Sequence record: EF437941 | Length of the DNA stretch: 64,000 nucleotides | Strand: one strand, 5' to 3' | Origin: Escherichia phage Phi1 | Shown here: positions 15,893-18,906 of the stretch, in pieces | How the letters are laid out: every line of letters starts with the position of its first letter | Numbering within the stretch: position 1 is the first letter of the stretch | Position numbers and translations under genes: made by a program | Notes under the pieces: model-generated | Database searches by the model: none | Seen by the model: the letters and a program-made list of their open reading frames with translations, nothing else | What the model was told of the DNA's origin: nothing

Positions 15893-15922
15893 ATTATGAT
15901 ATACACCCTCTGTTATGTCAAC
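15893..15922 (-). promoter_or_regulatory. Early promoter cassette (TTGACA-N17-CATAAT)
   Basis: Minus-strand GTTGACA, 17-nt spacer, CATAAT, then the conserved leader ACCCATACCGAAACGAA and GGAG RBS. Confidence 0.6.
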
Positions 15923-15928
15923 AACTTT

Positions 15929-16108
15929 TTAGAACATTTTTGAAATTAATTTTGCTTTGATTTCGCAGAGAACACCTAAAGATTTCTCGTCACCCGCTTT
16001 TGCTGCTTCTGATTGCATTTTTGAAATGGCTTCAATGTCAGTGCAATTATAAGCCGCTTGAACTTTAGCGATTGCGATGATTGCCGATTCGATGGTTAAG
16101 TGTTTCAT
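15929..16108 (-). CDS. Small hypothetical early protein (59 aa)
   Basis: ORF below the track cutoff (MKHLTIESAI...), read by hand, with RBS and its own promoter cassette. Confidence 0.45.
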   Translation of the reverse strand: MKHLTIESAIIAIAKVQAAYNCTDIEAISKMQSEAAKAGDEKSLGVLCEIKAKLISKMF

Positions 16109-16140
16109 GTTTGATTCTCCTTTCGTTTCGGTATGTGTGT

Positions 16141-16171
16141 ATTATGGGGGATCACCGATCCCCCTGTCAAC
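16141..16171 (-). promoter_or_regulatory. Early promoter cassette with GATC palindrome in spacer
   Basis: TTGACA, spacer GGGGGATCGGTGATCCCCC (perfect inverted repeat), CATAAT, conserved leader. Confidence 0.6.
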
Positions 16172-16177
16172 AACTTT

Positions 16178-16732
16178 TTAGTTATTTTTTAATTGCTCAT
16201 CTTGCAATAGGGAAATCACATGCTGGCGATGTTCTTCCGATTGAGGGACACCGAAAAAGTTTGTTTTGTAGAAATACTCTAATCGGTCTTCTCGTGTGCT
16301 CTCTTCCATCATGATCGCGGGTAGTCCGAGATTTCGGAAACGTCGCTTTTCTGCTGGCGTAAAATCACTGTAATACAGCATAGAATCATCGTTACCAGCA
16401 ATGCTAAACTCATCATTCATGAAGGAGAATATTGCGTTTAAACGCTGTTTACCGTCCACGATTTCGATCTCATAGCGAGAGCCATCATCAATCTTAGCCA
16501 TTGCGATAGCACCAACCGGAAAATCATTAATCAGGTTTTCGATAAACATACGTTTGTTTTCGGTGTCCCATACCAAAGGACGCTGATAATCTGGGTTCAT
16601 GTTGATATAGCCATCTTCTAACCACGCCTCATAAACAGAGATGACAAAGTTTTTAGTATTGGTATAGTAACGGCGTTTAGGCGTTAAACGGTTCATGTTA
16701 TAGTCTCCTGAATGGATCATCACGTAAATCAA
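16178..16732 (-). CDS. ParB/Srx-fold DUF262-like protein
   Basis: Motifs PDYQRPLVW and IVDGKQRLNAI resemble the DUF262 (GmrSD N-terminal) signature; last gene of a coupled operon. Confidence 0.5.
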   Translation of the reverse strand: MIYVMIHSGDYNMNRLTPKRRYYTNTKNFVISVYEAWLEDGYINMNPDYQRPLVWDTENKRMFIENLINDFPVGAIAMAKIDDGSRYEIEIVDGKQRLNAIFSFMNDEFSIAGNDDSMLYYSDFTPAEKRRFRNLGLPAIMMEESTREDRLEYFYKTNFFGVPQSEEHRQHVISLLQDEQLKNN

Positions 16733-17030
16733 TATCTTTTAAGAACTCATCCCATGAATGGCGGATATTGTTCTTAATTCTCCAGATAAGCGCAGGGATT
16801 GAACGCTCTCCCATCTGGAAGTAAGGATCATATGATCCGTATGCCCAATATGCTACTACAATTCCACAATCAGCGCAATAATATTCTATTTCACTTGCTG
16901 GCGACCAAAGTCCATCAATATGATCGGTGATCCTGCTTTCGATGTTATGGCTATGGCAATCAGGGCAACGGATGCAATGACCTTGTTTATCGTAATTTGA
17001 CGTTAGCGAATACTTAAACAATCTCATCAT
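16698..17030 (-). CDS. Zinc-ribbon protein
   Basis: CxxC...CxxC pairs (CIRCPDC, CADCG); overlaps both neighbours, suggesting translational coupling. Confidence 0.45.
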   Translation of the reverse strand: MMRLFKYSLTSNYDKQGHCIRCPDCHSHNIESRITDHIDGLWSPASEIEYYCADCGIVVAYWAYGSYDPYFQMGERSIPALIWRIKNNIRHSWDEFLKDIDLRDDPFRRL

Positions 17031-17743
17031 AGATCCTTATTGGCTTCAAATACTGCCTTTGCGAATCCTCGCGGGGTAAGTGACCTGATAGTCTTTGTTC
17101 TGGTTCCTTTCCCGCCTAGCTTAGAATGCTGTTTACTGTACCCTTTATTAATATGCAACGGTTTCTTTTCTGGCATTATAAAGCCTTGTCCGGTCCATAA
17201 GCAAGTCTTTTTCGGGTACATATCACGGGCGGCAATATACTCAGGAAACGTAGGATGTTTATCATCTTCCGGCAAATAACCGCCATATTCCCACGGATGG
17301 AACATGTAATCAGGCTTACGCCACATACTAGAGATAACGCTTACAGGATTCTCTATCATGTAGGGAACTCCTAGCCATTCACCCAAATAAGCGGTTATTT
17401 TAGCTGCCCGTACATCATGAACTTGAATCAATGGTCCTTGTTCTCGTTTCTTTCGTTCAAAGTGTGCAGCGCCACTAACAGCTAAATTGGTGCACGGTGG
17501 GAATGCAAATATAATATCCGGTTTCCCCCATTCAAGGTCCATTGCTCTTTCCAGCCAGTTCAAATCAATCCAGGTGTTTACATAAGTAATGTTTGGATGT
17601 TCAAATCTGGTATTATACTTTTTGTATGTACCGTGGTCGGCGTCATCCGCATTAAAGCAGACTACCTTATGACCTGCTTTAGCCCATTCTAGCCCCATTA
17701 TCCCCGATCCGTCAAAGTTGCAGAATATTAATTTTTGTTTCAT
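17027..17743 (-). CDS. Minimal cytosine-C5 methyltransferase-like protein
   Basis: 238 aa with motif I-like FDGSG, motif IV-like FPPC and motif VI-like ENP in canonical order; no obvious target-recognition domain. Confidence 0.4.
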   Translation of the reverse strand: MKQKLIFCNFDGSGIMGLEWAKAGHKVVCFNADDADHGTYKKYNTRFEHPNITYVNTWIDLNWLERAMDLEWGKPDIIFAFPPCTNLAVSGAAHFERKKREQGPLIQVHDVRAAKITAYLGEWLGVPYMIENPVSVISSMWRKPDYMFHPWEYGGYLPEDDKHPTFPEYIAARDMYPKKTCLWTGQGFIMPEKKPLHINKGYSKQHSKLGGKGTRTKTIRSLTPRGFAKAVFEANKDL

Positions 17744-17985
17744 ATACGACCCTTTAACCCAGCACAGATTTTAGTCGGTTCTTTACCGTGCCACATTAAG
17801 TAAAGTCCGTTAATGCGACCTTGTTTTGTGTGTGATTCTTTTCTGATCTTCTTATAGTGTCGTGCTTCCTCAACTGATTGTTTAGAATACCAATCATAAA
17901 GGAAGAGGCACAAAGGCCAACCATTAGCGGCCTTAATGCAGTTATTAAGAAATTCCTTATTGCGTTTAATTAATTTTCTTTTCAC
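17740..17985 (-). CDS. Small basic hypothetical protein
   Basis: 81 aa, Lys/Arg-rich, overlaps neighbours by 4 nt. Confidence 0.45.
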   Translation of the reverse strand: MKRKLIKRNKEFLNNCIKAANGWPLCLFLYDWYSKQSVEEARHYKKIRKESHTKQGRINGLYLMWHGKEPTKICAGLKGRI

Positions 17986-18233
17986 GCTGCCCCCATTGGT
18001 TTGATAGTAACAGAATCTAAAAGACCTTTGTTAGCCAGTTCGCGGCAAGTTTTCAGATCCGTAACTTCCCAGCCAGCCGCAATCAGGTTATCGATGAGGC
18101 TGTTAGCTACTTCCTCGCTCATGAAAGAGCACTGTTTGCCGATGGTGTAGCGCACACGATGTAATTTCAGTTTACGGAAGCCTTTAACGTTCAGGTCTTT
18201 AGCGATTTTCTTTGCGGTTTCGATGTTAGCCAT
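17982..18233 (-). CDS. Small hypothetical protein (first gene of the operon)
   Basis: 83 aa, GGAG RBS, directly downstream of a promoter cassette. Confidence 0.5.
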   Translation of the reverse strand: MANIETAKKIAKDLNVKGFRKLKLHRVRYTIGKQCSFMSEEVANSLIDNLIAAGWEVTDLKTCRELANKGLLDSVTIKPMGAA

Positions 18234-18273
18234 TGTTTGATTCTCCTAAGTGGTATCTCGTTTCGATGGTTGT

Positions 18274-18304
18274 ATTGTAGGGGGAGTTATCCTCCCCTGT
18301 CAAC
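18274..18304 (-). promoter_or_regulatory. Early promoter cassette (TTGACA-N18-TACAAT)
   Basis: Spacer holds the palindrome GGGGAGGATAACTCCCCC; conserved leader and RBS follow. Confidence 0.55.
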
Positions 18305-18317
18305 ACTTTTTATAAAA

Positions 18318-18485
18318 TTATTTGTTAATTTCTGGTGCGTTGCTAGGATAGTAACCTTCTTTAACTCCGAGGTATTTCGCAACCATCCCTACAATCTTCT
18401 GTGCTACTACAATGTCAAATTTCAGATAATCTTCGCCGTGGGTTTCAATGATATATGCTTCACATGCTGCTTTAGTCTCGAACAT
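18318..18485 (-). CDS. Small hypothetical protein (55 aa), paralog of 21593..21760
   Basis: MFETKAACEAYIIETHGEDYLKFDIVVAQK..., roughly 89 percent identical to the second copy. Confidence 0.5.
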   Translation of the reverse strand: MFETKAACEAYIIETHGEDYLKFDIVVAQKIVGMVAKYLGVKEGYYPSNAPEINK

Positions 18486-18876: not shown

Positions 18877-18906
18877 ATTATGCTATGTTCTTACTTTGGT
18901 GTCAAC
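18877..18906 (-). promoter_or_regulatory. Early promoter cassette (TTGACA-N17-CATAAT)
   Basis: Conserved -35, -10 and leader. Confidence 0.6.

Follow-up and report, generated by a model that had tools for sequence, protein, structure and literature searches.

Among the regulatory elements of phages RB49 and phi1, the promoter-early stem-loop (PeSL) was named by Arbiol et al. in 2010 in the hyperplastic regions, and approximately 50 PeSLs occur per genome (PMC2839356). Both the promoter activity and the terminator function of the stem-loop were demonstrated by experiment, and recombination between PeSLs was argued to shuffle accessory genes within these regions (PMC2839356). The present analysis concerns an operon of five minus-strand genes in Escherichia phage Phi1 (sequence record EF437941), which was studied within a stretch of 64,000 nucleotides, hereafter the window, and which encodes a 238-residue protein resembling C5-cytosine methyltransferases, a zinc-ribbon protein of 110 residues, a small DUF262 protein of 172 residues and two shorter products termed p83 and p81. 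The two cassettes bounding the operon display the sigma-70 consensus, the AT-rich upstream tract, the G/C stem-loop and the intergenic position in a hyperplastic region by which PeSLs are described; they differ in nothing from those of RB49/phi1, being identical elements within one genus. A first-pass annotation had regarded the gene combination as one that could not be placed among described phage systems. The cassettes are published PeSLs, the RefSeq records of RB49, JSE and GEC-3S list the methyltransferase gene under that name already, and the genes correspond to RB49 ORFs 187c-190c. Database annotations agree with our findings, and the region was known already for PeSL-mediated shuffling. 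The operon is an ordinary one with uncharacterised parts, and we lean, somewhat beyond an even balance, towards reading it as a PeSL-bounded early bundle of independently mobile, lineage-specific accessory genes that includes an orphan methylase, and not as a new modification system.

The classical C5 enzymes (PF00145), exemplified by M.HhaI, M.HaeIII and the catalytic domain of DNMT3A/B, share with the 238-residue protein the class I fold with C5-methyltransferase topology, a motif I of the form FxGxG, the Pro-Cys of motif IV with its invariant Cys, an ENV-like motif VI with its invariant Glu and a motif IX resembling RxLTxR. A small recognition region is likewise found in DNMT3. However, the Phi1 protein falls short of even the smallest classical bacterial C5 enzymes by some 90 residues, the region at the position of a target-recognition domain (TRD) is the same throughout its family whereas it is variable among the classical enzymes, and motif II carries an Asn in its subfamily in place of the classical Glu/Asp. 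Another relative, CmoX, is a phage DNA cytosine C5-carboxymethyltransferase of 333 residues with an SPPC motif and a cofactor-binding Arg, which is linked to cmoA and amide ligases (PDB 8yf3; PMC12783734). That Arg could not be mapped in the 238-residue protein, and no cmoA or amide ligase partner gene is present in the window.

The N-terminal DUF262 domain of GmrSD, BrxU and SspE has the same ParB/sulfiredoxin (Srx) fold and the same QR, DGxQR and F..N..G motifs as the last product of the operon. Unlike these enzymes, the Phi1 protein possesses no DUF1524/HNH nuclease, and with its 172 residues it is therefore no stand-alone type IV restriction enzyme. A ParB-fold gene beside a post-replicative DNA base-modifying enzyme, as here, is also encountered in the ParB-activated 5-methylpyrimidine dioxygenases (PMC13229309), a pairing which is conserved over many contigs and has been shown to be functional, whereas the Phi1-type pairing is confined to one genus, involves a ParB-fold protein of another Pfam family and is putative in function.

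Distribution and linkage of the genes

The linkage was examined by phmmer and profile hidden Markov models at 79 methyltransferase loci from outside Krischvirus, 4 kb on each side. None of the 79 carried a DUF262, zinc-ribbon, p81 or p83 gene near the methyltransferase gene, and clustering of the flanking open reading frames (ORFs) revealed no shared partner, the neighbours tracking the phage lineage instead, as with a SNF2-type helicase in one phage group. The reciprocal searches gave the same picture: a methyltransferase or zinc-ribbon gene was present at none of six DUF262 loci of other phages, and a methyltransferase or DUF262 gene at none of three zinc-ribbon loci. Klebsiella phage VLCpiM5b possesses homologues of both the methyltransferase and the DUF262 gene, located about 94 kb apart.

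Within Krischvirus, the operon region is 96-99% identical to 55 records (RB49, JSE, GEC-3S, ECD7, TB34, SAP and others), and in RB49 the counterparts ORF190c, 189.1, 189c, 188c and 187c adjoin the alt ADP-ribosyltransferase gene. Remodelling was observed in kaaroe, where a 59-residue gene is inserted between the zinc-ribbon and DUF262 genes, and in MIZ4 (OR167180.1) and MIZ5, from which the whole cassette is missing along with its two flanking genes of 59 and 55 residues (window ~15929-18485). The sister isolates MIZ2, MIZ3 and MIZ6 retain the block, and they constitute with MIZ4/5, all grown on E. coli B according to their records, a natural operon-plus/minus pair that would offer a clean test of cassette function. 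Apparent insertions in ELT3 and PTE-Eco09, suggested by multi-piece BLAST matches, were rejected as artefacts of repeated PeSLs, and the operon is intact in both. The missing linkage in other phages together with the remodelling within the genus therefore favours a bundle of accessory genes over a modification system.

The compact methyltransferase-like protein

The catalytic signature of the 238-residue protein comprises FDGSG (residues 10-14, motif I), FPPC (81-84, in which PPC 82-84 represents motif IV) and ENP (131-133, motif VI), and RSLTPRG (220-226) resembles motif IX; FDGSG and RSLTPRG are conserved within the close subfamily. Within the Pro-Cys of motif IV (P83-C84), C84 shows no variation among 35 close or among 57 distant family members, E131 of ENP is invariant in 57 diverse members, and P133 is invariant as well in the alignment of distant members. 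Fold comparison assigned the protein to the class I methyltransferases dependent on S-adenosylmethionine (SAM), with the C5-methyltransferases as the closest group. The C5-methyltransferase-like character that the first-pass annotation had read from the three motifs was thus upheld by both motifs and fold, and the profile and structural searches left the SAM-methyltransferase fold of this protein and the ParB/Srx fold of the last product unrefuted.

The protein matches PHROG 757 ('DNA methyltransferase') with an E-value of 9e-91, residues 1-237 covering profile positions 12-220 of 247, and an NCBIfam search gave no match. More than 7,300 homologues of this type were collected, nearly all of about 230 residues, which fall into 1,951 clusters at 50% identity, nearly all with lengths of 210-260 residues. 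They occur in 1,523 phage records, the majority from diverse, unrelated kinds of phage that infect Escherichia, Klebsiella, Salmonella and Shigella.

The remark that the protein is too short for a TRD also held, as only about 70 residues (the insert at 141-215) occupy that position, and no variable domain lies between motifs VIII and IX. This insert is more conserved than the SAM-binding N-terminal half (majority fraction 0.54 vs 0.34), which suggests that one fixed target is recognised family-wide rather than many specificities. With ~1,500 phages and ~2,000 clusters at 50% identity, this very large family of compact C5-methyltransferase-like phage proteins is annotated and biochemically uncharacterised, and a would-be recognition region that is conserved rather than variable constitutes its point of interest.

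The DUF262 and zinc-ribbon proteins

The 172-residue protein matched the Pfam family PF03235 (DUF262/GmrSD_N) with 73.1 bits against a cut-off of 33.2, over profile positions 5-106 of 199. The motifs Y37-Q38-R39, D81-G-K-Q-R85 and NFxGVPQSEEH (here NFFGVPQSEEH) are invariant in 10 homologues, and the stretches PDYQRPLVW and DGKQR noticed at first pass were confirmed. Since profile searches detected no nuclease family (DUF1524/HNH) in any of the five operon products, the protein represents a genuine DUF262/ParB-Srx NTPase domain, ParB/sulfiredoxin-like in fold, that carries no nuclease domain. Small homologues were found in Slopekvirus, Pseudotevenvirus, a group of 145-kb Klebsiella phages, Salmonella phage F1055 and metagenomic contigs, and a literature search returned nothing direct on the activity or specificity of phage DUF262-only proteins.

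The 110-residue protein is a four-cysteine zinc ribbon, which matched phrog_2993 (E 7e-34) and, below the cut-off, the Pfam family Zn_Ribbon_TF (E 9e-4). Homologues in a set of 5.8 billion proteins were restricted to the Krischvirus cluster, and tblastn against phage genomes disclosed distant relatives in Nonagvirus, Gorganvirus and Felixounavirus. A gene of about 108 residues located upstream of the DUF262 gene in Matisse and GAP161 was considered as a zinc-ribbon homologue and rejected, as it has neither Cys motifs nor a phmmer match.

Functional interpretation

On the basis of operon anatomy, folds, catalytic motifs, family sizes and the absence of conserved linkage, all of which were observed here, we infer the following activities, substrates and roles for the accessory-gene bundle. 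The host sigma-70 RNA polymerase would start at the upstream PeSL promoter directly after infection and produce a single mRNA with five translationally coupled genes, and the stem-loop of the next PeSL would attenuate this transcript. As for their origin, the genes would be independent passengers, assembled by PeSL-mediated or microhomology-mediated recombination. The 238-residue protein is predicted to belong to the PHROG-757 type and to act alone as a cytosine-C5 methyltransferase that depends on SAM, with an intact catalytic Cys/Glu pair and with a small recognition insert, conserved family-wide, in place of a variable TRD; it may methylate a sparse, fixed target in phage DNA and thus serve as an orphan anti-restriction methylase. 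The 172-residue protein, a putative NTP-binding domain of ParB/Srx fold devoid of a nuclease, may have an accessory or anti-defence role.

Several results weigh against this reading. The match of the 238-residue protein to PF00145 is sub-threshold (15.0 bits against a cut-off of 22) and confined to residues 10-100, and its motif II has Asn31 at the acidic position, where over 90% of the wider family carry Asp. Two family profiles compared with the PDB retrieved no methyltransferase at E<0.7, the only match being a non-significant one of motifs I-IV to M.HaeIII, and it was this lack of a significant hit among solved structures that made the fold comparison necessary. A literature search returned no measured activity or specificity for any family member of about 230 residues. 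The three larger genes are always jointly present or absent within Krischvirus (55 records each), a pattern that would fit either a functional unit or simple linkage, and at 96-99% nucleotide identity such co-presence is to be expected from linkage alone. Lastly, a 2026 study of digested DNA of phage TB34 detected no modified nucleosides, and BrxU did not cut this DNA (PMC13390438). As BrxU cleaves DNA containing 5-methylcytosine (PMC13390438) and the TB34 operon is 97.4% identical to that of the window, dense methylation of virion DNA is unlikely; if virion DNA is methylated at all, it must be so at few positions, unless the enzyme acts on a different substrate. The TB34 nucleoside assay would probably have missed sparse methylation at specific sites.

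The alternative that survives best, unlikely as we judge it, regards the operon as a true modification module, in which a methyltransferase that has no conventional TRD is activated or guided to its target by the ParB-fold DUF262 protein, perhaps together with the zinc-ribbon protein. The genes are adjacent, co-transcribed and translationally coupled, three of them are co-inherited in the 55 Krischvirus records, and the recognition region of the methyltransferase is small. Precedents are also available, in that some phage thymine dioxygenases (5mYOX) need a cognate ParB on double-stranded DNA (PMC13229309) and ParBc genes are frequent beside the C5-methyltransferase homologue CmoX (PMC12783734). 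However, these published partners belong to PF02195 and not to PF03235, and the absence of DUF262 and zinc-ribbon genes from all 79 other methyltransferase loci indicates that the family does not need them in order to work. In kaaroe the zinc-ribbon and DUF262 genes are kept apart by an unrelated gene, small DUF262 homologues occur with no methyltransferase in four other phage groups, and TB34 DNA is unmodified. The linkage counts (0/79, 0/6 and 0/3), the remodelling or loss of the block within the genus and the TB34 result likewise speak against the earlier proposal that the combination functions as a DNA-modification or anti-restriction module.

Ranking next, and quite doubtful, is the view that the 238-residue protein is not a DNA 5-methylcytosine methylase of the phage genome but acts on another substrate (host DNA, tRNA or RNA in the manner of Dnmt2, or nucleotides) or relies on a different cofactor, for example carboxy-SAM, which is made by E. 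coli and used by CmoX. Although the TB34 result leaves room for a different substrate, the architecture of PPC plus ENP is that of DNA or Dnmt2-type enzymes, no cmoA, ligase or other hypermodification gene lies nearby, and positive evidence for any alternative substrate is absent.

It is very unlikely that the DUF262-only protein is an anti-defence decoy which, as a GmrS-like NTPase domain devoid of a nuclease, poisons or titrates host enzymes of the GmrSD/BrxU/SspE type while the methyltransferase separately counters type II restriction in a two-pronged locus: BrxU and SspE, along with the defence proteins NsnA and PD-T4-2_A, are indeed among its best structural and profile matches, the gene is an early one in an accessory-rich hyperplastic region and dispensable in MIZ4/5, and some type IV systems require a separate GmrS-like subunit (PMC12373910), but neither experimental nor comparative evidence speaks for it, type IV enzymes pose no obvious threat to Krischvirus DNA that is normally unmodified (PMC6563267; TB34), and phages that modify their cytosine and phages that do not both carry this small DUF262 protein.

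A broader conjecture, to which we attach an equally small probability, holds that the PHROG-757 proteins of about 230 residues are minimal C5-cytosine modifying enzymes which depend on factors in trans for activity or targeting, a part that the co-transcribed DUF262 and zinc-ribbon proteins would play in Krischvirus, or that they use an unusual substrate or cofactor. If true, the operon would be the first split system of a ParB-fold activator plus a TRD-less C5-methyltransferase, and it would give a lead to the unexplained report, discussed next, of modified cytosines in phage SAP with no known pathway.

Cytosine modification in TB34 and SAP

Krischviruses have been described as containing ordinary cytosine (PMC6563267). 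For phage SAP, which is 99.96% identical to TB34, 5-hydroxymethylcytosine (5hmC) and glucosyl-5hmC were reported with no recognisable pathway (PMC13390438). An attempt to map this contrast between SAP and TB34 to the operon was not upheld, as the five coding sequences are identical in both phages. Within the region, SAP (OZ034687.1) differs only in that the PeSL directly after the DUF262 stop codon (window 16141-16180) is duplicated in tandem over 79 bp, a change which could escape a comparison based on single-nucleotide polymorphisms such as that of the published study.

Over 45 kb, TB34 and SAP differ by eight substitutions, all of them flips of the central base, CCSGG in SAP against CCWGG in TB34, which affect 8 of 17 CCSGG sites compared with 0 of 67 other CCGG sites. 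The Sanger-sequenced RB49 agrees with SAP at seven of the eight sites, and the window has three flips relative to TB34 (7707, 10090 and 14304). In the TB34 record (OX001802.1), uvsW, inh and gene 29 are split into several coding sequences, with one base fewer in A/T runs than in SAP and RB49, and these splits probably reflect errors of assembly, not genuine frameshifts. A Dcm-like CCWGG specificity was considered from these differences and rejected as evidence, nanopore consensus artefacts being likelier (PMC6591954) because RB49 sides with SAP at most flip sites and TB34 shows homopolymer frameshifts. Less probably, the flips may mark a genuine hot spot connected with the methylation of cytosine.

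Operon anatomy and PeSL cassettes

The five ORFs were recovered at the coordinates given at first pass, in a block spanning 18233..16178 (Table 1), and the claim of co-expression from a single early promoter was corroborated by the ORFs, their short overlaps, the strong upstream promoter and the lack of an internal equal. Start and stop codons overlap by 4 nt at three junctions, namely GTGA between p83 and p81 (17982-17985) and ATGA both between p81 and the methyltransferase gene (17740-17743) and between the latter and the zinc-ribbon gene (17027-17030). A further overlap of 35 nt had been proposed for the last gene, which holds only with a TTG start at 16732 and would give a product of 184 residues. 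The ATG at 16696 is the most likely start judging from its context and the TTG fits less well, because an AGGAG lies 8 nt upstream of this ATG, which follows the TAA of the zinc-ribbon gene by 1 nt, all annotated relatives use it, and the N-termini of homologues (MNRL/MxNRL) agree with it. Hence the three 4-nt overlaps and the DUF262 domain stand, whereas the 35-nt overlap and the length of 184 residues give way to a product of 172 residues.

Table 1. Genes and PeSL cassettes of the operon, with window coordinates
Feature	Coordinates	Strand	Basis
Upstream PeSL cassette	18274..18320	minus	AT-rich tract, sigma-70 promoter, G/C stem-loop in spacer (18297-18280)
p83 (RB49 ORF190c), 83 aa	17982..18233	minus	ORF; AGGAG Shine-Dalgarno 18247-18243
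p81 (RB49p189.1), 81 aa, basic ORFan	17740..17985	minus	ORF; GTG start overlapping p83 stop
Compact C5-cytosine methyltransferase-like protein (RB49 ORF189c), 238 aa	17027..17743	minus	Motifs, PHROG 757
Zinc-ribbon protein (RB49 ORF188c), 110 aa	16698..17030	minus	CxxC (29, 32), CxxC (53, 56)
Stand-alone DUF262 / ParB-Srx NTPase-domain protein (RB49 ORF187c), 172 aa	16178..16696	minus	Pfam, motifs
Downstream PeSL cassette	16141..16177	minus	Promoter scan 11/12; stem-loop fold

The upstream cassette, which drives the operon, has a -35 element TTGACA (18303-18298), a spacer of 18 nt and a -10 element TACAAT (18279-18274), and a promoter scan scored these two elements 11/12 against the sigma-70 consensus; the spacer stem-loop folds with -18.3 kcal/mol (z -4.3). 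Inside the operon the scan detected no promoter of comparable strength, the next 11/12 site being 16170-16141, past the last stop codon. There, the downstream cassette combines a -35 element TTGACA (16170-16165) and a -10 element CATAAT (16146-16141) with the stem-loop GGGGGATC/GATCCCCC (16164-16146; -15.2 kcal/mol, z -2.8), and it is likely to serve both as the terminator or attenuator of the operon and as the promoter of the next gene (59 residues, 16108..15929). Since two strong cassettes of promoter plus stem-loop flank them, the five genes form a single transcription unit. Four sigma-70 promoters of 11/12 quality lie within 3 kb, in intergenic gaps on the minus strand (15893-15921, 16141-16170, 18274-18303 and 18877-18905), and this run shows how closely PeSLs are typically packed in this hyperplastic region.

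The small genes p81 and p83

The product p81 matches phrog_7065 (E 4e-38). Phage JSE has lost precisely this gene, so that the methyltransferase reading frame there continues from the GTG start directly into its own codon 2. The two genes begin near-identically, GTGAAAAGAAAATTAAT compared with ATGAAACAAAAATTAAT and MKRKLI compared with MKQKLI (17725-17743 and 17967-17985), and p81 was lost in JSE through recombination at this short shared repeat of first codons, which left the methyltransferase gene with a GTG start. Judging from this deletion, p81 is dispensable.

The product p83 has no Pfam family and matches phrog_14908 (E 1e-58), a phrog of unknown function. It also gave a weak PADLOC match (E 3e-5) to residues 722-785, in the C-terminal part, of the DRT model RT_UG35, a defence-associated reverse transcriptase.

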